Below are positions 1,606 through 52,080 of a stretch of 64,000 nt of DNA, one piece after another. Origin of the DNA: Candidatus Moraniibacteriota bacterium. GTDB taxonomy: Bacteria; Patescibacteriota; Minisyncoccia; Moranbacterales; UBA1568. A model generated the notes under the pieces. That model was given only the letters and a program-made list of their open reading frames with translations. It was not told the DNA's origin and did not search any database. The position numbers were made by a program, and so were the translations under genes. Where the stretch lies: positions 80,627 to 144,626 of the forward strand of contig JAQTYF010000001.1 in assembly GCA_028688415.1 (NCBI GenBank). Direction: 5' to 3'. Position 1 is the stretch's first letter, and each line of letters starts with the position of its first letter.

Positions 1606-1659
1606 ATTTTTTGTGATATAATAGAGGTATAATATGCTAATTAAAAAAGACTGTCGTTT

Positions 1660-1795
1660 TTTACAAGAATCTTTCTGGGAGAGTTGGAGTTTTTTCGAGC
1701 ACGGTGCCGTCGTCTTCGACGGATCGAAAAAAATCCATAAGAGAAATTCACCGCTGGGTGAATGAATGGCTCCCAGAAAGGTTACTTGTAAAAAA
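1660..1795 (+). repeat. Intergenic structured repeat element, copy A (family also at 27381-27512 and 51918-51988)
   Basis: Shares 'caagaatctttctggga...gagca.ggt.ccg.cg..ttcg.cggatc.aaaaaa...ccgctggg...aatgg.tcc.a.aaaggtt.cttg' with copy B. Terminal arms are inverted complements of each other. Internal hairpin 'ccgtcgtcttcgacgg'. Preceded by extended -10-like 'tgtgatataat' and 'ggtataat'. Confidence 0.5.
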
Positions 1796-1816
1796 CATGG
1801 TAAATAATATACACCT

Positions 1817-2759: not shown

Positions 2760-3460
2760 AGTTTTTGATTTATCTTTTTAGAGAATTATCAAAAGCCAAT
2801 TTTTCATCATCGTTCCACCTCTCACAAGAGCTCTCAGTATTACGAAAAAAGCAGTCTCCAATCTACACAATCACAACTTCTTTTTTCGATCTGAGAGCTC
2901 TTGCTCAGTCAGTGTGGAAAGGATGATGAAAAATTCTTTTGACAATTCTCCTCACAAGTTGGGCTGTTTTATGAGAATGTGAGGTCTCTTCTCCTCTCTT
3001 TCAATACCCAAAAGAATTTTTTGTTGGTTGCTCCACTTGTTTGAGACGGCCTTCTTTGATCGAAAAATTTCCTATGGATGCCGTAGAATGAGGGAATATT
3101 TTTCATAAGCAAAGAAGGCCGGTGAGGCTGGAGCAGAGACAAAAGATTGCTTTTGGGTTTTGAAAGAGTTGCACTTCAGAATAGAATTCAGTTACTCAGG
3201 CTTGACAGGACTGCTTTTTCCTGCTTTAATGAAGTTCTTACTCTAGAGCCTTTTAGATGGTTCTACATTCCTTTGATTGAGTCATATCCTCTAATCTGAA
3301 GGGAAGAGATAAGACTTAATCACTAAGGGGTCTTTCCTTTTAGCACATTTCTTTGTTACAAGTTCCGGTACTCACCGCTGTATGCGACATACAGCTTGTT
3401 CTGTTCCTCACTTGCGCCTCGAACTGTACATAAAAGTAAAAAACCCTCTATATATCGAAT
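2760..3460 (+). promoter_or_regulatory. Roughly 700-nt ORF-free, hairpin-rich region upstream of DEAD-box helicase (candidate long structured 5' leader or unrecognised ncRNA)
   Basis: No + strand ORF of 60 aa or more. Multiple perfect inverted repeats: 2929-2941 'aaaaattcttttg' with 3009-3021 'caaaagaattttt'; 'gagctctcag'/'ctgagagctc'; 'ggccttctttg'/'caaagaaggcc'; 'cctcaca'/'tgtgagg'. Confidence 0.4.
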
Positions 3461-5518: not shown

Positions 5519-7606
5519 ATGTCCGTATTCACATTACGAAGCAAATACAAACCAGCAGGGGATCAGCCAGAGGCCATCGCTTCTTTGATGCGTGGATTGA
5601 AGAAAAAAATGCGGTTCCAGACACTCCTCGGTGTCACAGGATCAGGCAAGACTTTTACTGCGGCCAATATCATTGCTCAGAATGACCAACCGACCCTCGT
5701 CATCGCTCACAACAAGACACTCGCCGCTCAACTCGCACAGGAGTATCAGGAATTTTTTCCCGATCATGCCGTGCACTATTTCGTCTCATACTACGACTAC
5801 TATCAGCCAGAAGCATATATGCCAGCCTCTGATACGTACATCGAGAAAGACGCACAGATCAACGCAGAGATTGACCGTCTCCGTCACGCTACCACGCAGT
5901 CGCTCCTCACCCGTCGTGACGTGATCATTGTCGCTTCCGTTTCCTGTATCTATGGATTAGGGAGTCCAGAAGAATACAAGAAAGAAAATATGCATCTCGA
6001 AATCGGTATGCGGATGGTGCGGACAGAGCTCCTTCACAAGCTCGTCTCTATCTTCTTCGAACGCACCAATGCTGATCTTGGCCCGGGACAATTCCGTAGT
6101 ATCGGCAATCGAGTCGAGATCATGCCAATCTCGGATACATTCACCTATTTGCTCGAGATAGAGAGTGGGAAACTCGTACATATCACCAAGATCGATCCTG
6201 TCTCCCAAAAAATCCTCGATACACCAGAAAATATTTTTCTTTTTCCTGCAAAACATTTCATCACTGATCCAAAACAGAAAGAAAAAGCGATCGTCTCGAT
6301 CCGTCAGGAACTTACGAAACAATTGAAAGTACTGGAAGCTGAAGGCAAACCACTCGAGGTGGAGCGTCTGAAACGTCGGACGAACTATGATCTCGCGATG
6401 ATGCAGGAGATCGGCTATTGCAATGGTGTCGAGAACTATTCCCGTCATCTCTCTGGAAAAAAACCAGGTGATCCGCCAGAAACACTGCTCTCATATTTCC
6501 CACACCATGAGGATGGAACACCAGACTTCCTCACGATCATCGATGAGTCACACGTGACCATACCTCAACTGCGTGGTATGTATGCCGGTGACCAGTCTCG
6601 CAAGAAGACGCTCGTCGAATACGGTTTCCGTCTCCCGAGTGCTCTCGACAACAGACCACTCCGTTCTGAAGAATTCCTCGAACGAGTAGGACAGATTGTA
6701 TTCACTTCGGCGACACCAGCAGACTATGAACGAGAGGTGAGTAGCCAGATAGTGGAGCAGGTTATCCGACCGACTGGACTGATCGATCCTGAGACGACGG
6801 TGCTTCCTGTACGAGAGAAAGACGAGCCTGTCCGCAATGCTTCCGTTTCGGATGCAGGAGGGTATCCAGGACAGATCGGAGATTTTATCAGACAGACTGA
6901 AGAAGAAATAAAAAAGGGTGGACGTGTCATCGCGACGACACTGACGAAGAAAATGGCCGAAGACCTGAGTACCTATCTGAAAGAACGTGGCGTGAAAGCA
7001 GAATACCTCCACAGTGATATCAAAACGATCGATCGTATCAAAATCCTCACGTCTTTTCGTAAGGGTGATTTCGACTGTCTCGTCGGAGTGAACCTGCTCC
7101 GCGAAGGTCTCGATCTTCCCGAAGTTACATTCATCGGTATTCTCGATGCTGATAAAGAAGGATTCCTCCGCTCCGAGACATCGCTCATCCAGATCATCGG
7201 GAGGGCTGCTCGCAATGTGAACGGACGAGTCGTCCTCTATGCTGATCGTATGACGGGATCGATGGAATATGCTCTCCGCGAGACCAATCGTCGTAGGAAA
7301 TTGCAGATAGAATATAATACGAAACACGGTATCACTCCGCAAACCATTCAGAAAAAAATTCACGATATTACCGAATCGATGGAGAGCGATCATGCCAAAG
7401 CCGTACGTGCAAACGTCACCCTCGATGAAGAAATATTTGCCAAGAATCCAGAGAAACTCATCCGTTTGAAAGGAAAAGAAATGCAGTCAGCCGTGAAAGA
7501 ACTCGATTTCGAGACGGCCGCTATCCTCCGCGATGAGATACGTGCCCTCGAAGAATCGATAGGCGGGAAAAAGAAGAAGCGCCCCGTCCGTTCCAAGATG
7601 TTTTAG
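5519..7606 (+). CDS. uvrB: Excinuclease ABC subunit B (UvrB)
   Basis: Walker A 'GVTGSGKTFT', helicase motifs, and C-terminal UVR domain 'ETAAILRDEIRALEE'. 695 aa. Confidence 0.95.
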   Translation: MSVFTLRSKYKPAGDQPEAIASLMRGLKKKMRFQTLLGVTGSGKTFTAANIIAQNDQPTLVIAHNKTLAAQLAQEYQEFFPDHAVHYFVSYYDYYQPEAYMPASDTYIEKDAQINAEIDRLRHATTQSLLTRRDVIIVASVSCIYGLGSPEEYKKENMHLEIGMRMVRTELLHKLVSIFFERTNADLGPGQFRSIGNRVEIMPISDTFTYLLEIESGKLVHITKIDPVSQKILDTPENIFLFPAKHFITDPKQKEKAIVSIRQELTKQLKVLEAEGKPLEVERLKRRTNYDLAMMQEIGYCNGVENYSRHLSGKKPGDPPETLLSYFPHHEDGTPDFLTIIDESHVTIPQLRGMYAGDQSRKKTLVEYGFRLPSALDNRPLRSEEFLERVGQIVFTSATPADYEREVSSQIVEQVIRPTGLIDPETTVLPVREKDEPVRNASVSDAGGYPGQIGDFIRQTEEEIKKGGRVIATTLTKKMAEDLSTYLKERGVKAEYLHSDIKTIDRIKILTSFRKGDFDCLVGVNLLREGLDLPEVTFIGILDADKEGFLRSETSLIQIIGRAARNVNGRVVLYADRMTGSMEYALRETNRRRKLQIEYNTKHGITPQTIQKKIHDITESMESDHAKAVRANVTLDEEIFAKNPEKLIRLKGKEMQSAVKELDFETAAILRDEIRALEESIGGKKKKRPVRSKMF

Positions 7607-8346: not shown

Positions 8347-8498
8347 GACAACCTTTCTCCCCAAGGTGTATCATGCTATATGTAACTAGAGTAAACAAAT
8401 AAAATACTCTGAGAAAAGAATCATTCTTTTTGATTCGCAATTGAGAGTTGATATTTCTCTCGTTCTCTGGTATACTACATTTCCTTTTGATGATATGT

Positions 8499-11084
8499 AT
8501 GACGAAAAAAATCGCACCAAAAAACACGTCGCACACCGCTCAGCCATCCGAGTGGATCATCGTTCGGGGTGCGCGTACGCACAATCTGAAGAACGTGACA
8601 GTACAGATGCCACGGAACAAAATGGTTGTTTTCACTGGTCTCTCTGGATCAGGCAAATCGTCTCTCGCATTTGATACCATATTTGCCGAAGGACAGCGTC
8701 GCTATGTGGAGTCACTCTCTGCGTATGCACGGCAGTTTCTGAACACGATGCAGAAGCCGGACGTGGATGAAATCGTCGGACTCTCACCGGCCATCTCTAT
8801 CGATCAGAAATCCGCGAGTCGAAATCCTCGTTCGACCGTGGCGACGATCACCGAAATCTATGACTACCTGCGTGTACTCTACGCTCGTCTCGGTCGTCCG
8901 CACTGTCTCGTGTGTGATCGGGAAATCCAGAAACTTTCTACTGAAGAAATGCTCCTCATCGTCTCCGACAAAGTGAAGCAGGCCCTTACTGTCGCCAAGA
9001 AGAAAAAAATGTTACTGAGTATCACCGCTCCGGTCGTCCGTGGACGCAAGGGAGAATACTATCAGTTGCTCTACAATGCACTGAACAAAGGATTTGCAGA
9101 AATATTTCTCGATGGGGAACGCAAGAGTCTACGTGAGCGTGTCCTCCTCTCCAAAACCAAGAAACATAACATCGATCTGATCGTCGATGAGTTGCCATTG
9201 TTCGAATTTGAAAAATTTCCCGAGACATCGAGAGAACGATTGTCCGAAGCAGTGGAGCGAGCTCTCGAAGAAAGTGACGGACTCGTCAATGTGCGTATCG
9301 GTGATGAGAGTCTCGTTCTGTCCGCCAAGTTTTCTTGTCCGTACGATGGTTTCTCCTACCCGGAAGTCGAGCCGAGGCTGTTCTCGTTCAACTCTCCCTA
9401 TGGTGCATGTGAGGCCTGCAATGGACTCGGGACGAAACATTTTTTCGGTGATGAACCGTGCGAAGTCTGTCATGGATCACGTCTTCGCGAAGAGGCTCTT
9501 CATATCCGTATCGGTGGAAAAAATATCGTGGATGTGACGACGATGATGACCGAGGATGCCAAGAAATTTTTTGACACACTCGAGCTGACTGAACGTGAGA
9601 AACAGATCGCTGCTGTCGTACTCAAGGAAGTCGGTGGACGTCTCCAATTCCTCCTCAATGTCGGACTGAATTATCTCTCACTTTCTCGTCGTGCCAATAC
9701 GCTTTCAGGAGGAGAGGCTCAGCGTATCCGTCTCGCTTCTCAGCTCGGTTCACAACTCGTGGGCGCTCTCTATGTCCTCGATGAACCGACCGTCGGACTG
9801 CATCAGCGTGACAATGATCGTCTCATCGCGACACTCAAAGACCTTCGTGATCTGGGCAATACTATTATCGTCGTCGAACACGATGAAGACACGATCTATG
9901 CTTCTGATTATCTCGTCGATATCGGACCGGGTGCAGGGGTGCATGGTGGTAATGTTGTCGTGTCCGGGTATCTCGATGATTTGCTTCAGTCACCGAAGAA
10001 TGATTCACAGTCACTCACACTCGCGTACTTGCGAGGCGAAGAAAAAATCCGGGTCCCAGAGAAGAGACGCACCAAAGAAAAAGGAACACTGAAAGTGCGT
10101 GGTGGGAAACTGTTCAATATTCATGATATGAATGTCGATGTCCCACTCGGACGGCTCAACGTCATCACCGGTGTCTCCGGCTCGGGCAAGTCGACATTGC
10201 TCTATGAAATCATTCACAAAAACCTCCAGGCTCGTTTCGACAGACGCTACAAATCCAACGAAGTATTTCACTGCAACACATTTACCGGTTCTGAATATTT
10301 GTCGCGCGCCGTACTTATCGATCAGAGTCCGATCGGTCGTACACCAAGATCGAACCCAGCGACGTACACAGGAGCATGGACACATATCCGTGATTTGTTC
10401 GCATCGAGTGAGGACGCTCGGGTACGTGGTTGGAAGGCTGGACGTTTCTCATTCAACCGTCCTGGTGGACGCTGTGAGACCTGTGAAGGAAACGGATTCA
10501 TCGCTGTCGAAATGCATTTTCTCCCGACAGTCTATGTGCCGTGCGATGTCTGCAATGGCAAACGATTCACCAAAGAAACGCTCGAGATTCTCTACAAACA
10601 CAAGAACGTTTTTCAGGTGCTCGATATGACGATCGAAGAAGCGTTCTCGTTCTTCGTGGACATCCCAGCCATCGCTGATCGTCTGAAAACACTGAACGAA
10701 GTCGGTCTCGGATATCTCAAGCTCGGTCAATCGGCGACGACACTGTCGGGTGGTGAAGCGCAACGTGTGAAAATTTCCTCGGAACTCTACCGCAAGATGT
10801 ATGAACGCACGATCTATCTCCTCGATGAACCGACGATCGGACTGCATTATGAAGACGTAAGAAAACTGATCGAGATTCTCGAGAGCCTCGTTCAAAAGGG
10901 GAATACAGTGATCCTCATCGAACACAATATGGATATTATCAAATCAGCGGACTATATCATTGATATCGGTCCCGAAGGTGGAGCAGGTGGTGGCAAGATC
11001 GTCGCTTTTGGTACGCCGGAGGAAGTAGCTCAGATGCCACGCTCGTATACTGGTCAGTATCTGAAAAAAGTCTTGAAAAAATAA
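8499..11084 (+). CDS. uvrA: UvrA paralog (short form, lacks the insertion domain between the first Cys cluster and the second zinc finger)
   Basis: '[12 protein letters not shown]', Walker A '[14 protein letters not shown]', two 'LSGGEAQR' ABC signatures, zinc-finger cysteines. Between 'CEACNGLG' and 'CEVCHGSRL' there are only about 10 aa, versus about 120 aa in the second copy. Start moved to Met at 8499 (MTKKIAPKN), which follows the extended -10. Confidence 0.85.
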
Positions 11085-13096: not shown

Positions 13097-15895
13097 ATGC
13101 CAGAGAAAAAATCAGTGATTGAGGTGCGCGGTGCTCGAGTCAATAATTTGAAGAACGTGGATGTCGATATACCGCGCAATTCCCTCGTGGTTATCACAGG
13201 ACTTTCTGGATCAGGAAAATCTTCACTGGCTTTTGATGTTCTTTTTGCAGAGGCGAATCGTCGTTATGTGGAGTCCCTTTCCTCCTACGCACGCAATTTC
13301 CTGGATGGTTTCAACAAACCAGATGTCGATGCGATTCACAATCTTTCTCCTGCTATTTCTATTGATCAGAAGAGTGTCTCTCGCAGTCCTCGTTCGACGG
13401 TTGGTACGATGACGGAAATCTATGATTATTTGCGTATTCTCTTCGCCAAGATAGGTGTGCCACATTGTCCGGACTGTGACAAACAATTGACACGTAAGAG
13501 TGTGAGATCCATCTTAGATGAGATACTCCTCTTGCCTACGGATACCTCTATTGCTTTCCTTGCTCAGAATAAAACGCTTGCTACCAAGACAGAACGAGAA
13601 GCTCTTGCGCTCATCAATACATGGGGGTATGTTCGTGTTTGTTTTCATGGAGCGTTGGTGCCGATCGCACAAGCGATAGCAGAAGCTTCTTCGACAGAAA
13701 TATCTGAAGTAATCATCGTGGTGGATCGACTCGTGTTGGATCTCACTCGTCCTGACAAAGAACGTATTCTCGATTCTCTCCAAACAGCTTTTCGTGTCGG
13801 CGAAGGAACACTGACGCTTCGTATCAATGGTACCGAAGAAGAGCGCGTCTATAATGAAGAATATCGTTGTGAAGAATGTGGAGTGAGTGTGCCAGAATTC
13901 ACACCAAGCAAATTCTCTTTCAATAGTCCAGAAGGAGCCTGTGTCAAATGTGCCGGACTCGGTGTGACGCTCGAATTCGATCCGGAATTGGTTATTCCGA
14001 ATAAGAATCTTTCTCTGGCAGAGGGAGCGATCCGTCCGTGGAGTAAGATGAATGGCGATCGTCATATGGGTAATGGACCAATGCAGTGGCTTCGGAGCGC
14101 GAGCCGTCGACAGAAATTTTCTCTTGATGTACCAGTGAAGAAATTATCGGCTAAACATCTCGCTCTTATTTTGAACGGTGAACTCGATGTACAGCAGGAT
14201 GCCTTTCCTGGAGTGATTGCTTTGCTTGAAAAAAAATACCGTGAGACAAAATCGGATCATTTGAGAGGGGATATCGAAGCCTATATGCTCACGAAACGTT
14301 GCCCGGTCTGTGAAGGGAAACGATTGCGACTTGTTTCTCTTGCGGTGAAGATTGAGGGGATGTCTATCTATGATTTTGTTTCACGAAGTGCCGAAGATTT
14401 TCTTCAGATGATCATGACACTCCATCAACATCTACTCAAAACGGAAGAACGAGGCGTGATCGATCCGCTCTTTCGAGAAATGGAATCTCGAATACGAGCA
14501 GTGGACAAAGTTGGTCTCGGATATATCGAATTGGCGCGAAGTGCTGATACGCTGTCTGGTGGTGAGGCTCAGCGTATACGCCTTTCTGTACAGATGCGAT
14601 CGGGACTATCAGGAATTATCTATGTCCTTGACGAACCGTCTGTCGGTCTTCATAGTCGAGATACTGAACAGCTGATCAGCGCACTCGAAGATCTACGCTC
14701 TGCGAACAATTCTCTCGTCGTTGTCGAGCACGATGTCGCTATTATGAGAAAAGCGGACTATATCATCGATCTCGGACCAGGAGCAGGGAGTGAGGGTGGT
14801 GAGATTATTTTTGCTGGTACTCCAGAAAAATTGATGCATTCCAAGATGTTGACTGGAGAATATCTTTCGGGAAAACGAAACATATCAAATAAAAAAATAA
14901 CACGGAAACTTACCAAAGAAGCTATCACTATTTTTGGAGCGACAGAACATAATCTGAAACATATCGATGTCAGTATTCCTCTCGGAATGCTCGTAGCGGT
15001 CTCAGGTGTTTCTGGCTCTGGAAAATCGACACTCATTCACGATATTCTTTCACGTGCATTATCGAAATATTTCTTCCGTGCCAAGACTGAACCGGGAGCG
15101 TATGAGAAAATGGAGGGATTTTCGAATATCGATAAAATAATCACTGTCACACAAGATCCTATCGGACGTACTCCTCGTTCCAATGCTGCTACATATACCG
15201 GTGTTTTTAGTCTGATTCGAGATCTTTTTGCAGAGACAACAGAAGCAGAACGAGAACGATATTCAGCGAGCTATTTTAGTTTCAATATGCGTGGTGGTCG
15301 GTGTGAGGCGTGTCAGGGTGGGGGACTGAAGAAAATAGAAATGTATCTCTTGCCGGATGTCTATGTACCGTGCGAAGTTTGTCAGGGGACGAGATATAAT
15401 GCGAAAACACTTGCTATTAAATATCGAGGAATGAGTATCGCTGATGTGTTACAGATGACTGTGACAGAAGCGAGACGCTTTTTCTTGGACCAGAAAATGA
15501 TCGAAGAAAAGTTGCGTGTGCTCGAAGAGGTAGGTCTTGGATATCTCGTCTTGGGACAGAATGCGACCAATCTCTCTGGTGGCGAGGCTCAGCGTATCAA
15601 GCTTGCTACGGAACTCGCTCGCAAATCGACCGGCAAAACACTTTATATCCTCGATGAACCGACAATTGGTCTTCATTTTGAGGATGTCCGTCGTTTGCTT
15701 GAAGTTCTCGAAGCACTGGTGGACAAAGGGAATAGTGTACTCGTCGTAGAACACAATATTGATGTGATACGGAGCGCTGATTGGGTGCTCGAACTCGGGC
15801 CTGATGGAGGCGCGCGAGGAGGAGAACTCATTTTTTCTGGACCACCAGAAAAGTTGAAACAATGCAAACGGTCTCCTACTGCAAAGTATCTGTAG
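13097..15895 (+). CDS. uvrA: Excinuclease ABC subunit A (UvrA), canonical full-length
   Basis: 932 aa. '[12 protein letters not shown]', '[13 protein letters not shown]', both ABC signatures, both zinc fingers and an intact insertion domain. Confidence 0.95.
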
Positions 15896-16951: not shown

Positions 16952-18172
16952 ATGTCGAAATTTTTTTATACTGCAAAAAATATCACGACTGGAGAAAGTT
17001 CTGGTGGTGAATTGGAAGCCAAGGATGAAAAAAGTCTTGCTCAAGAATTACGTTCACAGGGACTTCTTTTGACTTCTCACAAGGCTCTAGAGGAAGAAAA
17101 AACTCTCAATATCAAATTCTTTGATCGTTTTTCGACAGTTCCTCTCAAAGAAAAAATGGTCTTTACTCGCAACTTGTCAGTAATGGTTTCGTCAGGTCTC
17201 ACTGTTTCTCGTGCTGTGCAAAACCTGAGTATCCAGACAAGTAATGCTCGATTCAAAGGTGTTCTCACTTCTGTCTATGATGATGTTCAGGCAGGTAGGA
17301 CGCTCTCCGAAGGTCTCGCACGTTTCCCGAGTGTTTTTGATGAGTTGTTTGTCAATATGGTGAGTGTCGGAGAGATGAGCGGAAACCTGGAAGAAATTCT
17401 CGATATCCTCGCTCTTCAACTCGAGAAAGAGCAGGATCTCTCGAGTAAAGTCAAAGGAGCACTCATCTACCCTGCAGTGATTGTGGTAGCGATGGTCGGT
17501 ATTTCTATATTGATGTTGACCTATATCCTCCCGAAGATCACAGGTGTTTTCAAGGATATGGACGTGACACTTCCTGCAACGACACTTTTCATCATGAAGA
17601 TGAGTGATCTCCTCCGAAATAATGCTATTATGGTGATTATTTTTACCATCATCTTTATTATTGGGGTAAAGATCTTTGCAGGGACTACCACCGGGAAGCG
17701 TTTCTTTAGTCTCTTGTACCTCTATTTGCCTATCGTAGGCGGTATCGTCATCAAGGTGAACTGTGCTCGTTTTGCTCGTATCTATAGCTCACTTTTGAAA
17801 AGTGGTGTTTCTGTAGTGACTGGACTAGGGATTGTCTCCAAGACACTCGGAAATGTGTACTATCAAGATGCTCTCGCAGAAGGTATCGAAGAGGTGCAGA
17901 AAGGCGTTGAACTCAGTAAAATCATCAGAAGATACCCTCATATTTTTCCGATTCTTGTTCCGCAGATTCTTGAAGTAGGTGAAGAAACTGGAAAAACCGA
18001 GACAGTACTTCGTCGTCTGGCAGAATTCTATGAAGAAGAAGTGTCTCAGATTACCAAAAATATGTCATCGATCATTGAACCGATTCTCATGCTTGTTATT
18101 GGTGGTGGTGTAGGATTTTTCGCGGTTGCTATGCTTCAGCCGATGTATAGTGTTCTCGAAAATATCAAATAG
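16952..18172 (+). CDS. pilC: Type IV pilus assembly / T2SS platform protein PilC (GspF family)
   Basis: Two GspF-type repeats, three hydrophobic segments, N-terminal 'MSKFFYTAKNITTGESSGGELEAKDEKSLAQELRSQGLLL'. Start moved from 16871 to the Met at 16952. Confidence 0.85.
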   Translation: MSKFFYTAKNITTGESSGGELEAKDEKSLAQELRSQGLLLTSHKALEEEKTLNIKFFDRFSTVPLKEKMVFTRNLSVMVSSGLTVSRAVQNLSIQTSNARFKGVLTSVYDDVQAGRTLSEGLARFPSVFDELFVNMVSVGEMSGNLEEILDILALQLEKEQDLSSKVKGALIYPAVIVVAMVGISILMLTYILPKITGVFKDMDVTLPATTLFIMKMSDLLRNNAIMVIIFTIIFIIGVKIFAGTTTGKRFFSLLYLYLPIVGGIVIKVNCARFARIYSSLLKSGVSVVTGLGIVSKTLGNVYYQDALAEGIEEVQKGVELSKIIRRYPHIFPILVPQILEVGEETGKTETVLRRLAEFYEEEVSQITKNMSSIIEPILMLVIGGGVGFFAVAMLQPMYSVLENIK

Positions 18173-18174
18173 TT

Positions 18175-18297
18175 TCAAAGTATTTTTTTTGGAAAATTTC
18201 ATTGTTAGACGCTCTGGTACTCGACACGGTACTCTGAGTACCGCTTACTCCATTCCTCACGTCTGTCGCGAACTTTTCTCAAAAAAAATACTTTGAA
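18175..18297 (+). repeat. Long inverted-repeat element between pilC and first pilin gene
   Basis: Arms 'tcaaagtatttttttt' (18175-18190) and 'caaaaaaaatactttgaa' (18280-18297). Inner perfect hairpin 'cggtactc-t-gagtaccg'. Arm motif shared with the 27110-27316 element. Confidence 0.5.
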
Positions 18298-18398
18298 GCT
18301 TATTACAAAAATCGTTTCTCAATAACAGATTTATAAACAGGGTTATTTGAGGAAATATTTTGATATTTTTTATGCTCGTTACGAGTCGCAAATTACAA

Positions 18399-25934: not shown

Positions 25935-27080
25935 ATGACAAAAAAATTTTTCCTCAAAACTTTCGGGTGTCAGCAAAATGTCGCTGATTCAGAACGGATC
26001 GAGAGTTTCTATCTCTCTCGTGGTTTTTCTCGTGCTGAAACAATAGAAGAAGCTGATGTGCTTCTTCTCAATACGTGCGTCATTCGTGATAAAGCGGAAG
26101 AGAAGGTGTACGGTATGATCAAAAGTCTCCGTACACGTCTCGGTAATAAATCACCGCATATCGTCGTGACAGGATGTCTCATCGGAGCGGCGAGTCGTGT
26201 CCCTGGTGGTAAAATGATGAAACGTCTGACGACACGTCTCCCTGATGTTGAATTTCTTCCTCTTGAAGAAGTCGGTTTTGAATATACGCCGACCCGAGCT
26301 TCTGGCAAGACAGCATCTATCGTCATTTCCAATGGGTGTAATAATTACTGTGCTTTTTGTATTGTACCGTTTTCTCGTGGCAAAGAACGATCACGAGCCT
26401 TCGCTGATATTCTTTCTGAAGCCAAACAGGTGATAGCAGATGGATATGAGGAAATAGTACTCCTTGGTCAGAATGTGAATTCGTACGGGGCTGATTTTTT
26501 GCAAGAAAAAATACAAGAAGAGGAAGAATATATTTTGCCAGATGGTAAGAAAGTGAAGCCAGTGATGGTAAAACATCTGAACCGACACCGTATTCCGACA
26601 TTGTTTCCATACCTTCTTGAAAGTGTTGCACAAATACCCAAAGTGAAAAAAGTCACTTTTATTTCTTCGAACCCATGGGACTTTTCCGATGAATTGATCA
26701 ATGTGATGGCACGATACGAAAATATCAATCGAGAGCTTCATCTCCCTGTGCAATCAGGAAATGATGAAATATTGAAAAAGATGAATCGTTGGTATACGCG
26801 TGAAGAATATCTCAGTCTCATTGACCGTATTCGTCAGGCAATACCCAAGATGACATTCACGACTGATATCATCGTCGGATTCCCTGGTGAGACGAGAGAA
26901 CAATTCGAAGACAGTATTGATATCGTAAAGCGTGTCGGTTTTGTCAAGACATTCATCGCGTGGTATTCACCACGTCCGGGAACATCAGCTACCAAAGGAA
27001 TGGAAGATGATGTTCGTATCGAAGAAAAACAGCGTCGTTTTCACGAACTTGATGCTATCGCGTTCAAAGGAAAGAAGTAG
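25935..27080 (+). CDS. MiaB/RimO-family radical SAM methylthiotransferase, short form apparently lacking C-terminal TRAM domain
   Basis: MTTase N-domain 'FFLKTFGCQQNVADSE...LNTCVIRDKAEEKV' and radical SAM 'GCNNYCAFCIVPFSRG'. 381 aa, ends right after the radical SAM core. Confidence 0.85.
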   Translation: MTKKFFLKTFGCQQNVADSERIESFYLSRGFSRAETIEEADVLLLNTCVIRDKAEEKVYGMIKSLRTRLGNKSPHIVVTGCLIGAASRVPGGKMMKRLTTRLPDVEFLPLEEVGFEYTPTRASGKTASIVISNGCNNYCAFCIVPFSRGKERSRAFADILSEAKQVIADGYEEIVLLGQNVNSYGADFLQEKIQEEEEYILPDGKKVKPVMVKHLNRHRIPTLFPYLLESVAQIPKVKKVTFISSNPWDFSDELINVMARYENINRELHLPVQSGNDEILKKMNRWYTREEYLSLIDRIRQAIPKMTFTTDIIVGFPGETREQFEDSIDIVKRVGFVKTFIAWYSPRPGTSATKGMEDDVRIEEKQRRFHELDAIAFKGKK

Positions 27081-27109
27081 TAAGAATTTTTATCTCTAGG
27101 GCGGTATTG

Positions 27110-27316
27110 TTTTTCAAAAGTATTTTTCTTCTTCCGTACCCCGCTTCGAACGATTCATGTCTTAGCGAAGAGAAAGTCGTCTCATTCTCGCTCTCAAAGA
27201 GCGAGTTCAGATAAAAACTGAACCATGAGACGATTTTCCTTGCTCCGCTTTCACCTCGAATCGTTATCGAATACAGGCTAAAGGAAGAGAAAAATACTTT
27301 TGAAAAATAATACCAT
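27110..27316 (+). repeat. Roughly 200-nt near-perfect nested palindrome (candidate MITE-like element or structured RNA)
   Basis: Outer arms 'ggtattgtttttcaaaagtatttttcttcttcc' and 'ggaagagaaaaatacttttgaaaaataatacc'. Nested pairs 'cgaacgattc'/'gaatcgtt', 'gtcgtctcat'/'atgagacgat'. Central hairpins 'gctctcaaagagcgag' and 'ttcagataaaaactgaa'. Confidence 0.55.
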
Positions 27317-27380
27317 CTGTAGACAGGGAGCGATATCAAAACAATATTTGCACCATCAAAAGATATGAGGAAATTTTCTG

Positions 27381-27512
27381 TCGCAAGAATCTTTCTGGGA
27401 AGCCTGAAGTTTTTTTGAGCATGGTTCCGACGTTTCGTCGGATCAAAAAAAGTTCACGCAAAGAGTTTTTCCGCTGGGAAAAATAAATGGTTCCAAAGAA
27501 AGGTTGCTTGCG
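27381..27512 (+). repeat. Intergenic structured repeat element, copy B
   Basis: Alignable to copy A over its whole length. Internal hairpin here is 'ccgacgtttcgtcgg' versus 'ccgtcgtcttcgacgg' in copy A, which is a compensatory change preserving pairing. Confidence 0.5.
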
Positions 27513-27682
27513 ATAGAAAATTCACAAACTCTATAGCAACAGAAGAAGTTTACCGATTTTTTCTATTGAAAGCCACAGAAGAAAAATATTTTTGGAGAAC
27601 AATGTTGTTCATTGATTTTTGAAAATTGATTGAAGATTATTGTTTGGATGTGCTAATATAGGGAAGTATTCTATCTATTATT

Positions 27683-38654: not shown

Positions 38655-38703
38655 TAGGAAATATATTGAAACAATTTGTATAAGGAAAAGCATATTGAAA
38701 AAC

Positions 38704-38796
38704 ATCTGAAAATATCTTCAGAATGTTTTTTAGGAAACCATTGGGCGAAACCTCTTCGGACGGGTTTATCTAAAAATATTCTGAAGATATTTTCTT
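38704..38796 (+). repeat. Intergenic long inverted repeat between rfbC and rfbB
   Basis: Arms 'tctgaaaatatcttcagaatgttttt' and 'aaaaatattctgaagatattttct' (about 24 bp, 2 mismatches) flank a roughly 45-nt loop containing 'gaaacctcttcggacgggttt'. Confidence 0.5.
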
Positions 38797-38834
38797 TCTA
38801 TTAAGCATCGCATTTAATTTATCTCTTTCTTATT

Positions 38835-50099: not shown

Positions 50100-51917
50100 A
50101 TGAATGAAATTACCCCACAAAAAAATATTCGAAACTTTTGCATTATTGCTCATATTGACCATGGAAAATCTACTCTAGCTGACCGTTTGATCGATCTGAC
50201 ACATACGGTGGAAAAACGGAAAATGAAAGAACAATTGCTCGATCAGATGGATCTCGAACGAGAACGTGGCATCACTATCAAGCTTCAGCCAGTCCAGATG
50301 CACTATATCTATGAGGGAGTGGAGTATATGTTGAATCTGATCGACACACCAGGACACGTAGACTTTCATTACGAAGTATCGCGCTCGCTTGCTGCAGTCG
50401 AGGGCGCTATCCTTCTCGTGGATGCTACCAAAGGAGTGCAGGCTCAGACACTTGCCAATCTCTATCTCGCTATTGAACAGGGTCTTGAAATCGTTCCTGT
50501 GATCAATAAAATTGATTTGCCGAATGCACAGGTAGAAAAAACCAAAAAAGAAATTGTTCATATTCTCGGATGCAAAGAAGAAGACATTCTCCTCGCTTCT
50601 GGGAAGACAGGGATGGGTGTACAAGCAGTACTCGAGCGAGTTATTACTCTTGTCCCTCCACCAAATGGAGATGCGGAAAAACCTCTTCGGGCACTTATTT
50701 TTGATTCTGTTTACAACACGTACAAAGGAGTCGTCGCGTATGTGAAAGTTGTTGATGGAAGTGTGAAGCGTGATGATATGCTCCATATGCTCGGAACAGA
50801 GAAAGAAGGAGTAACTGTTGAAGTAGGACTTTTTCATCCAAACCTCGTACCAACTGATATTCTTCGTGCTGGAGAGATCGGTTATATCGCTACAGGACTC
50901 AAAGAAGTGGGACACTGTCGCGTCGGAGATACAGTGACGTGGCGACTCAGAGACCGAGAAAAAGTGTTCGTGGAACGTCTCCCAGGGTACAAAGAAATCA
51001 AACCAGCCGTGTATGCGAGTTTCTATCCGCTTGATGGTGATGATTATACATTGATGCGTGACGCCTTGGATAAACTCAAGCTCAATGATGCTGCGTTCAC
51101 TTTCGAACCAGAAAGCAATCAGGCTCTCGGAAGAGGGTTTCGTTGTGGATTTCTCGGACTGCTCCATCTCGAAATTATTCAGGCCAGACTTGAGAGAGAA
51201 TTCGATCTCAGCCCGACGATTACAACACCGTCAGTTGTCTATGAAATTGCTTTGCATGGTGAGGAGAAACGCATTCCGTTGTATTCACCGACAAATCTTC
51301 CTGATCCATCAAGTATCGAGAAAATTTACGAACCATATGTCGCTCTTTCTATCGTGACGCCGAGTGAATATTTGGGAAATGTGATTACACTGACTTCGTC
51401 TATTCGTGCGGAATACAAAAATACAGAATACATCGATGAGGAACGGGTGCTCCTCTCTTTTGAAGCACCCCTGATGGATGTTATTGTCAACTTTCATGAT
51501 GATCTGAAAAGCGCTTCCTCGGGATATGCTTCGATGAATTATGAACCAATAGAATATCGAGCAAGCGACGTTGTCAAGCTTGAGATTCTCGTTGCGAATG
51601 AACACGTGGACGCTTTTGCTCGTATGATCCCTCGTCGGGATGCATACGGAGAAGGAAAACGTGTGGTAGAGAAATTGAAAGAAGTAATTCCGAAACAGAA
51701 TTTTGCTGTGGCTATCCAGGCTGCTATCGGAGGAAAAGTCATCGCTCGTGAGACGATCGCTGCGTTCCGTAAGGATGTGACAGGTGGTCTCTATGGGGGA
51801 GATTTTTCACGGAAGAAAAAGCTCCTTGAGAAGCAGAAAAAAGGGAAGAAGAAGATGCGTGATATCGGGAAAGTTTCTATTCCAGGAAGTGCTTTTCTCG
51901 CTGTGCTGAAGAAATAA
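50100..51917 (+). CDS. lepA: Elongation factor 4 (LepA)
   Basis: 'IRNFCIIAHIDHGKSTLADRL', 'DTPGHVDF', 'NKIDL', and the LepA C-terminal domain. Start moved to the Met at 50100. Confidence 0.95.
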   Translation: MNEITPQKNIRNFCIIAHIDHGKSTLADRLIDLTHTVEKRKMKEQLLDQMDLERERGITIKLQPVQMHYIYEGVEYMLNLIDTPGHVDFHYEVSRSLAAVEGAILLVDATKGVQAQTLANLYLAIEQGLEIVPVINKIDLPNAQVEKTKKEIVHILGCKEEDILLASGKTGMGVQAVLERVITLVPPPNGDAEKPLRALIFDSVYNTYKGVVAYVKVVDGSVKRDDMLHMLGTEKEGVTVEVGLFHPNLVPTDILRAGEIGYIATGLKEVGHCRVGDTVTWRLRDREKVFVERLPGYKEIKPAVYASFYPLDGDDYTLMRDALDKLKLNDAAFTFEPESNQALGRGFRCGFLGLLHLEIIQARLEREFDLSPTITTPSVVYEIALHGEEKRIPLYSPTNLPDPSSIEKIYEPYVALSIVTPSEYLGNVITLTSSIRAEYKNTEYIDEERVLLSFEAPLMDVIVNFHDDLKSASSGYASMNYEPIEYRASDVVKLEILVANEHVDAFARMIPRRDAYGEGKRVVEKLKEVIPKQNFAVAIQAAIGGKVIARETIAAFRKDVTGGLYGGDFSRKKKLLEKQKKGKKKMRDIGKVSIPGSAFLAVLKK

Positions 51918-51988
51918 TAAAAAAGTTCACGCAAAGAGTTTGCCCGCTGGGGCAAATGAATGGCTACCCAGAGAGATTGCTTGTGATA
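51918..51988 (+). repeat. Intergenic structured repeat element, copy C (3' half only)
   Basis: 'aaaaaagttcacgcaaagagttt.cccgctgggg.aaatgaatggct.cccaga.ag.ttgcttg' matches the 3' halves of copies A and B. Begins immediately after the lepA stop. Confidence 0.4.
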
Positions 51989-52080
51989 AGAAATCTTCCA
52001 TCTAAAGAATGGAATGATTTTTGCAAAATTGGGACGAAAACGGTATAATAAATGTGTAATATATTTTTATATAAATTCTT

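Follow-up and report, generated by a model that had tools for sequence, protein, structure and literature searches.

A folded intergenic repeat of about 150 nt was found in the window, meaning the whole 64-kb stretch of DNA that was analysed, and in the genomes of related Moranbacteria, and it is probably a non-autonomous, non-coding element of the REPIN/MITE-like kind that is propagated by way of its folded single strand. Using a pattern scan together with a covariance model (R1), it was possible to recover 46 distinct full copies from 11 Moranbacteria MAGs. These copies form three subfamilies which differ in the sequence of their closing stem and share a common plan. As far as the searches show, the family was previously undescribed and is the first such repeat described in CPR bacteria.

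A sequence-only reading of the window had proposed a structured intergenic repeat family with two copies, A and B, that can be aligned from end to end, and this was supported by blastn within the 64-kb window (77% identity over 128 nt, E=1e-18). The element it described is real, but the length of roughly 130 nt that it gave is too short. Folding with flanking sequence places copy A at positions 1650..1801 of the plus strand (152 nt; R1 score 162 bits, E=2e-43; limits set by the MFE fold) and copy B at approximately 27369..27525 of the same strand (R1 score 144.5 bits, E=2.5e-38), because the closing stem continues past the conserved CAAG...CTTG into sequence that is specific to each copy. Copy C (51919..51993, plus strand) is a truncated 3' half; in the window search 65 nt of it proved 83% identical to the 3' half of B (E=2.5e-14), and nhmmer aligned it with model positions 68-136 (E=1.9e-11). 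It had been placed right after the lepA stop codon (51915-51917), and it does begin 2 nt past it. Directly left of the window there is a fourth copy, D, on the minus strand (L124 2043-2204), and the sequence of C is almost identical to its 3' half. The window genome consequently carries four copies (A-D) in approximately 75 kb, or about one every 20 kb. No further copies were detected inside the 64-kb window by nhmmer, blastn or the covariance model with its filters off. A word match at window position 14003 falls within the coding region of a uvrA-like gene and was rejected as chance, and candidate copies at L060 21013 and in L093 were rejected as coding or pattern-only matches.

All real genes in the window are on the plus strand, and the neighbours of the copies are unrelated housekeeping genes, encoding a C39-like peptidase, a MiaB-like radical SAM enzyme, exonuclease III, LepA and thioredoxin. 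A scan of the window for tRNA and tmRNA genes found none. The proposal that all copies lie just downstream of a stop codon is true of C but not of B, which is separated from the stop at 27080 by about 290 nt that include another foldback element, and has the next start 157 nt beyond it. Four or five other foldback elements were noted in the window, three of them with homologues in other Moranbacteria; foldback elements occupy most of its long spacers and break short-read assemblies. Short-read contigs from the same organism terminate within copies C and A, where contig ends are to be expected since these are repeats.

Every copy takes the form of a three-way junction. The inverted-complement termini, which had been interpreted as a closing stem, do form one (P1), and the folds of A and B have z scores of -7.7 and -5.9 against shuffled sequences, with none of 200 shuffles being as stable. 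In copy A, the 5' arm of P1 (1650..1681) consists of an outer variable part (1650-1663) and an inner conserved part, CAAGAATCTTTCTGGGAG (1664-1681). It pairs with the 3' arm at 1770..1801, in which the folds leave a single A bulged at position 1784. The composite hairpin P2 (1685..1737) is built in the folds from UGGAG, UUUUUUCGA, the internal loop GCACGGUG (1699-1706), the apical hairpin CCGUCG-UCUU-CGACGG, a lone A, UCGAAAAAA and UCCA. The purine-rich junction J2/3, UAAGAGAA (1738..1745), is unpaired in every fold and is followed by the hairpin P3 (1746..1763), AUUCACC-GCUG-GGUGAAU; all of these parts are read on the plus strand. The corresponding parts of copy B, also on the plus strand, are the P1 arms at 27369-27401 and 27491-27525, P2 at 27405-27456 and P3 at 27466-27483. 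The apical hairpins of the two copies were found exactly as first quoted, ccgtcg-tctt-cgacgg in A (1707-1722) and ccgacg-ttt-cgtcgg in B (27427-27441), and the difference between them does preserve pairing. Copy C retains the 3' strand of lower P2, J2/3, P3 (51939-51956), the junction J3/1 and the 3' arm of P1.

Across the family, P1 is present in all copies and measures 30-32 bp. In its inner 18 bp (CAAGAATCTTYCYGGGAG in the main subfamily) a single purine is bulged from the 3' arm and a U·G pair is conserved, and its outer 12-14 bp are hypervariable yet complementary. Insertion into pre-existing terminator hairpins was considered as the origin of the outer stem and rejected, as copies from the same genome have a common outer stem (L068, L105, L118) and no U-run follows the stem. 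P2 is composed, in order, of UGRAG, UUUUUUYGA, an 8-nt internal loop on the 5' side (GCAYGGUK) facing a single A, and a GC-rich apical stem that is sometimes longer or invaded by extra palindromes. In one copy (L076) the top of P2 has been flipped between its inverted repeats. J2/3 is purine-rich and occurs as two subtypes, AUAAGAGAAG or ACGCAAAGAG, P3 has 7 bp and a conserved GCUG loop, and J3/1 is GAAUGR. An alternative P2 pairing of YGGU with AUCR, suggested by the comparison of A with B and by RNAalifold on three sequences, was rejected: of the two Y positions in P2, the first covaries perfectly with R (TA 25, CG 18), but the second does not (TA 14, CA 11, CG 10, TG 8). Also rejected was a loop-loop pseudoknot of AGC with GCU, which is not kept in subfamily 3.

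By its LepA the window was assigned to a Candidatus Moranbacteria MAG (GCA_028699965.1, contig JAQVTP010000002.1). The pattern used for scanning was the interior common to the window copies and to a homologous element in a relative whose LepA is 92% identical. In that relative the element lies on the opposite strand between murJ and lepA, and its closing stem is wholly different while the interior is shared. Among one-genome-per-species GTDB contigs the pattern found 57 loci, of which 36 belong to Moranbacteria/Patescibacteria MAGs or a mis-binned contig; the remaining 21 match the pattern only, scoring no more than 21 bits, so that no copies outside Moranbacteria were found among the 57. The pattern imposed invariance on the P2 segments GAGCA, GGT, CC and GGATC. 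Several of the copies recovered by R1 do not fit it, and at one of the P2 pairs that the pattern forces, copy D, which was found without it, carries C-G in place of G-C. At least 11 copies are present in a single MAG of approximately 1 Mb (E14). The copies are mutually 65-92% identical, and for only 16 of the 46 is the nearest relative found within the same genome. The copies are old, and their divergence lends no support to recent transposition.

Searches further afield gave chance matches or none. A pattern built on the 3' core (CCGCTGGG..AATRAATGG..) had 15 matches in viral contigs, all due to chance, 38 in JGI metagenomes, all chance as judged by nhmmer, and none in GTDB genomes. A P2-core pattern had none in viral contigs, and blastn with copy A had none in phage and plasmid collections. 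A search of Rfam, which had been recommended at the outset, gave no family at gathering score anywhere in the window, and around A and B just noise up to E=10. The literature on MITEs, REPINs, ncRNAs and repeats in CPR bacteria, Patescibacteria and Moranbacteria yielded nothing relevant.

Strong evidence for the fold came from covariation. In the model-fitted alignment of the 46 copies, 93.1% of cells are paired as opposed to 74.4% in shuffles, double changes occur in 47 of the 57 pairs (46 copies, 11 genomes), and double-change cells number 503 against 130, none of 500 shuffles attaining any of the observed measures; these are counts of cells that are not independent events, compared with a null that is not phylogeny-aware, and some P2 columns were fixed by the scan pattern. 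Slid controls were 40-55% paired. A structure-blind MAFFT alignment gave 84.7% versus 75.5% paired cells and 288 versus 119 double-change cells. Covariation was seen in 29 of 30 P1 pairs, and double changes occur family-wide in 6 of the 7 pairs of P3. At the Y-R pair of the P2 U/A stem, 25 copies have UA and 18 have CG, and there are no exceptions. Mismatches of the G·U kind outnumber A·C by 126 to 42 overall and by 68 to 6 in inner P1. The sense strand folds more stably than the antisense strand in all 46 copies, by a mean of 12 kcal/mol, and its advantage is alike in copies co-oriented with their neighbours (-14.6 kcal/mol) and antisense to them (-12.7 kcal/mol). The sequence-only reading had taken the compensatory changes as the mark of a functional RNA. 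The covariation is amply confirmed, but it shows a constraint on one single strand, which could be either ssDNA or RNA.

Copies are found just past stop codons in either orientation, and in tandem contexts the median distance from the preceding stop is approximately 16-25 nt, which is shorter than that to the next start. No recurrent neighbouring protein or linked gene was found across the family loci, where the neighbours are unrelated housekeeping genes. No target-site duplication was detected, the longest word common to both flanks measuring 3.0 nt compared to 2.93 nt in mismatched-flank controls, with no TA rule, and no conserved flanking or target word was seen at the loci.

The presence of the element varies between close relatives. 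The window has nothing inserted between murJ and lepA; in nzgw505 this spacer is occupied by a subfamily-2 copy in reverse, and in another relative by a different foldback element. Downstream of lepA, the half-copy C occurs only in the window's lineage and is missing from L059, L060, L062, L063 and L130, whose LepA proteins are 90-97% identical; L130 has a gene other than trx after lepA. E14, 48_12 and 45_14 differ in which of the two spacers flanking a uvrA-like gene contain a copy, and presence also differs between L109 and L114. Partial and compound copies were found as well. A solo 5' end fragment lies in L075, and head-to-head dimers of two subfamilies, joined by the conserved linker TGTGACATCGTGTGA (pattern TGTGA-N5-TGTGA), were seen at four loci, and one genome has two of these. 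The family is therefore polymorphic for presence and absence, dispersed in both orientations, and includes truncated and dimeric copies. Syntenic copies that have been retained show 1 compensatory pair among 8 differences in one case (L073 and L115) and 9 compensatory pairs in another (L071 and L095). Such changes in syntenic copies would also fit a host function at each locus, which is a point against a mobile element.

A constraint on a single strand, independent of host transcription, in a dispersed and polymorphic repeat without target duplications is most simply read as a fold that is needed by the element itself. Of the candidates that had been put forward from the sequence, a REP- or MITE-like mobile repeat fits best. 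On this reading the sense strand, once single-stranded, would fold to the three-way junction, and selection would act on the fold itself and not on the flanking genes. A trans-acting enzyme would recognise the fold and copy or move the element; it would most likely be an ssDNA-handling (HUH/Y1-type) transposase or something similar that leaves no target-site duplication. The nearest parallel is with REPINs and their RAYT transposase, or with further elements that transpose as ssDNA. Copies would then persist where they are harmless, just past stop codons, and would be inherited vertically for long periods. We infer from this that the strand would be DNA and not RNA, that the enzyme would be of the kind named, and that mobility may be continuing. 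A tblastn search with E. coli RayT of 489 kb of Moranbacteria DNA, approximately 5% of the carrier genomes, gave no match (best E 0.07), and no transposase or other mobilising gene was found within that same 5%. In a look for a parent insertion sequence with the same ends, the end motifs at 42 loci were found at the short elements only.

A more far-reaching proposal, which we put forward tentatively and regard as having a minor chance of being correct, is that the three-way junction is the recognition fold of an undescribed mobilisation or RNP system. This could be a replicator peculiar to CPR bacteria that an enzyme moves in folded, single-stranded form, or a new class of structured RNA, serving as a scaffold or catalyst, that has multiplied in reduced genomes. 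If so, the combination of a variable but paired outer stem with invariant loops would represent the functional interface, and the spacers of Moranbacteria may house a whole guild of foldback replicators.

It is rather unlikely that the element is a host-beneficial cis-acting RNA, whose 30-bp stem in read-through mRNA would block 3' exonucleases, be a site for RNase III, or insulate or terminate neighbouring units. Cis-acting roles of this kind have been proposed for REP, ERIC and Correia elements. The short distance from preceding stops and the preservation of pairing in syntenic copies are consistent with such a role, and the antisense strand also forms a long stem (-44 to -51 kcal/mol). The only terminator-like call inside copy A is on the antisense strand, where the P3 hairpin followed by UUCUCUUAU scored as terminator-like, with UUCUCUUAUG as the tail; other calls on the minus strand were one downstream of copy A and one at copy B that does not involve P3. 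In the sense direction, however, the U-run comes before P2 and an A-run after it, no U-run follows any GC hairpin, and the element does not have the form of an intrinsic terminator. No terminator occurs at a fixed distance from it. Canonical terminators often adjoin the element anyway, so that it is not needed as one. The orientation of the copies bears on all of these roles: of the 31 copies with both neighbours on one strand (a number that counts half-copy C), 20 run antisense to these genes and 11 in the same direction, with a further 9 in mixed settings. Given this mixture, and a strand asymmetry that is equal in both classes, host read-through transcripts cannot shape the fold, and the suggestion of a terminator or insulator is disfavoured. 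A simple stem role would moreover leave the internal loop, the GCUG loop and the junctions unexplained.

Less likely again is a site in double-stranded or cruciform DNA for a host protein of the nucleoid, of replication or of site-specific recombination, with symmetry kept at the DNA level. The long, near-perfect dyad symmetry would suit such a site, as would the conserved TGTGA-N5-TGTGA linker between dimer partners and the inverted P2 apex of L076, which a DNA-level site could tolerate. A duplex or cruciform predicts that G·T and A·C would be tolerated equally, which is at odds with the excess of the former reported above, above all in the inner stem. The asymmetric 8-nt/1-nt internal loop and the two unlike side hairpins are not symmetric features, and the cores of integron attC sites (RYYYAAC/GTTRRRY) were judged on reading the sequence to be missing from the stem base.

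We consider it more doubtful still that the copies are small structured RNAs, each transcribed independently, that make up a multi-copy family with a role such as RNP scaffold, sponge or ribozyme. In favour of this are the three-way junction, which is strand-specific, covaries strongly and has conserved unpaired motifs, and the lack of a link between the orientation of copies and that of their neighbours, as is usual for separate genes. The -10-like boxes that had been pointed out before copy A are present (1612-1633, 15-35 nt before the element), but they do not extend to a promoter at a fixed distance across the family. Hexamers resembling -10 boxes occur upstream in the sense direction of 16 of the 46 copies, compared to 15-18 of 46 in three control flanks, and full -35/-10 promoters were found at 3 of the 46, although the organism does use canonical promoters, as at trx (TTGCAA-17-TATAAT). 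The reading as a family of ncRNAs is accordingly disfavoured by this comparison. The copies also have no terminator at a fixed distance and no Rfam match even at E=10, and those that are truncated, flipped or invaded by palindromes resemble decaying repeats. Chance similarity between intergenic regions, or an assembly artefact, might be suspected from just 2.5 copies inside the window, but can be dismissed in view of the within-window E values of 1e-18 and 2.5e-14 and the finding of 46 copies in independent NCBI, ENA and JGI assemblies.

CPR/Patescibacteria have genomes of about 1 Mb that are considered streamlined, with little mobile DNA. The Moranbacteria lineage nonetheless holds a structured repeat that reaches the density given above in the window genome. 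The family provides a ready covariance model for the annotation of Moranbacteria genomes and an explanation for contig ends in Moranbacteria MAGs. Its 47 covarying pairs make it a well-powered natural experiment on the upkeep of a single-strand fold in a population of repeats, and it offers a handle for finding the mobilising enzyme in uncultivated bacteria.

REPINs and REP-BIMEs, which are mobilised by RAYT transposases, are known from Pseudomonas and Enterobacteria (PMC3116915, PMC3337134). The Moranbacteria element resembles them in being non-coding, extragenic, multi-copy and present in either orientation. It also has in common with them long single-strand hairpins whose pairing is kept by compensatory change, the lack of a target-site duplication, vertical inheritance over long periods as a population within the genome, and, as in BIMEs, inverted pairs with defined linkers. 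It is unlike them in its size and form, a three-way junction of approximately 150 nt as opposed to the REP palindrome of 20-40 nt or a doublet of about 70-110 nt, in having no GTAG-type 5' tetranucleotide at the foot of the hairpin, and in its host lineage, the CPR/Patescibacteria; no RAYT was found in the 5% of carrier genomes that was searched.

In size and setting the element is close to the Correia elements (CREE) of Neisseria, to RUP and to ERIC (127-bp imperfect palindromes). These are 100-200 nt long with terminal inverted repeats of 20-30 bp, are intergenic and near gene ends, form long RNA stem-loops when transcribed, and show insertion polymorphism between relatives. With classical MITEs it shares terminal inverted repeats, their sequence differing by subfamily, as well as a multi-copy, non-coding nature and insertion polymorphism. 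Unlike classical MITEs it has no target-site duplication, whereas Correia elements duplicate TA, and its fold is strand-specific with conserved internal loops. Its terminal repeats vary between subfamilies while the interior is conserved; where terminal inverted repeats are bound by a transposase, it is the ends and not the interior that are expected to be conserved.

Strand-specific hairpins as the recognised feature, the lack of a target-site duplication and an enzyme that needs no terminal inverted repeats are likenesses to PATEs, elements derived from IS200/IS605 and transposed as ssDNA by HUH enzymes (PMC6006769). In PATEs, however, there are separate subterminal hairpins at each end and insertion takes place beside a fixed tetra- or pentanucleotide, while the Moranbacteria element is one closed fold with no conserved flanking word. 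The attC sites of integrons, including the Vibrio cholerae repeats, recall the element described here in several ways: they are imperfect palindromes (60-140 nt), it is as a folded single strand that they undergo recombination, their structure is conserved and their sequence variable, extrahelical bases give strand choice, and they are located at the 3' ends of genes. It differs from them in having no RYYYAAC/GTTRRRY cores, its stem base being CAAGAAT/GGTTGCTTG, and in occurring in both orientations among housekeeping genes, where attC sites form one-way arrays of cassettes. No integrase was seen. Readings of the element as a DGR, retron, integron attC, hammerhead or omega-RNA were dropped on reading the sequence. 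The hammerhead and other three-way-junction ribozymes were rejected on the grounds that the junctions of the element are AG(U), UAAGAGAAG and CGAAUGRCU, with no CUGANGA/GAAA core, and that no ribozyme family appears in the Rfam lists at E=10. Because it lacks defining traits of REP, MITE, attC and hammerhead families and has no Rfam match, we place the element as a new family within the structured interspersed bacterial repeats.

Most of the long spacers of the window were found to be filled by foldback families together with three long intergenic hairpins, located at 2775–2960 (186 nt, with the minus strand giving the more stable fold), 18155–18315 (161 nt) and 38695–38805 (111 nt). The hairpin at 18155–18315 has a 75% homolog at positions 7109–7249 of L073 and another at the start of L120 (L-numbers denote retrieved sequences with coordinates of their own, mostly Moranbacteria MAGs), and these occurrences are possibly syntenic.

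Besides the family studied here, the intergenic foldback repeat of approximately 150 nt, two further foldback elements were identified. The first of these, unrelated to that family, occupies 226 nt (27095–27320) and adjoins copy B on its upstream side. It possesses terminal inverted repeats of 27 nt (GGTATTGTTTTTCAAAAGTATTTTTCT) with 96% complementarity, and a fragment of one arm occurs at 27577–27603. No Rfam match was obtained for this element. A homolog at 83% is present in another Moranbacteria MAG (L120, 2316–2520), 3′ of a uvrA-like gene, at a site which is not orthologous to that in the window. The other represents a third foldback family, with a member of 191 nt at 2985–3175 (sense fold of −80.7 kcal/mol). 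A 93% homolog of this member resides in the murJ–lepA spacer of relatives (L063–L066), with weaker matches in L114, L119, L120 and L090. In L063 its ends (CAAGAAT.../...GATTGCTTG) are similar to the inner part of the closing stem in the family studied.

An additional copy of the latter family, copy D, was located in the genome from which the window comes, immediately to the left of its base 1 (L124, 2043–2204, minus strand), antisense to the nrdD/nrdG-like genes on its flanks. Copy C, a 3′ half, is nearly identical to the 3′ half of copy D. At one pair of P2, the composite hairpin of the fold, copy D has C-G in place of G-C, and the apparent invariance at this pair was forced by the search pattern used in the genome scan.

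Short-read Logan contigs of the same organism terminate within copies of the family, namely at the 3′ ends of L001, L002 and L125. Such contigs break off 31 nt into copy C and, in copy A, approximately 87 nt past the peptidase stop, and these ends are the assembly signature of a repeat. A copy is also carried by a contig of 2.6 kb binned as 'uncultured Bdellovibrionales' (L072, CAYGEA010000087.1); it is 97% identical to one in the Moraniibacteriota MAG nzgw503 (L119), and its flanks are the same, and the placement of this contig under Bdellovibrionales is probably a binning error.

The window also encodes two uvrA-like paralogs, of 878 aa (8448–11084) and 932 aa (13097–15895), which explain the coding direct repeats D1–D3 and D12 of the window repeat scan. 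In other MAGs, the gene for the 932-aa protein has copies of the family studied on its flanks.

Head-to-head dimers of subfamilies 1 and 2 of this family were identified in L068 (7250–7584), L103 (2931–3269), L104 (~2400–2687) and L111 (7443–7786), with the partners approximately 20 nt apart and the spacer containing TGTGACATCGTGTGA, a conserved direct repeat of TGTGA. One genome holds two such dimers at different loci, and hence the unit may be the dimer as such. A rearranged copy occurs in L076 (2959–3117), where the top of P2, comprising the internal loop and the GC hairpin, is inverted between the U/A-rich inverted repeats, with the remainder of the element in the usual orientation.

Smaller structures were also present in relatives. 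The spacer 3′ of lepA in L129 (LepA 94%) contains two copies of another small, perfectly paired hairpin, one reading CTACTTAGAGGTTCAACCTCTAAGTAG and the other a variant of it, at 8852–8880 and 9025–9055. A GC-rich perfect palindrome of approximately 20 nt, CCTGCCTGCCGGCAGGCAGG, was found with close variants in L073 (~1905–1925), L082 (7596–7795), L111 (7621–7786) and L063 (9790–9820). In one spacer it appears as an insertion relative to a sister genome, and several copies of the family studied also contain it within P2, either in the loop or in the apical stem. This palindrome looks like a separate mini-palindrome of the REP-like type.
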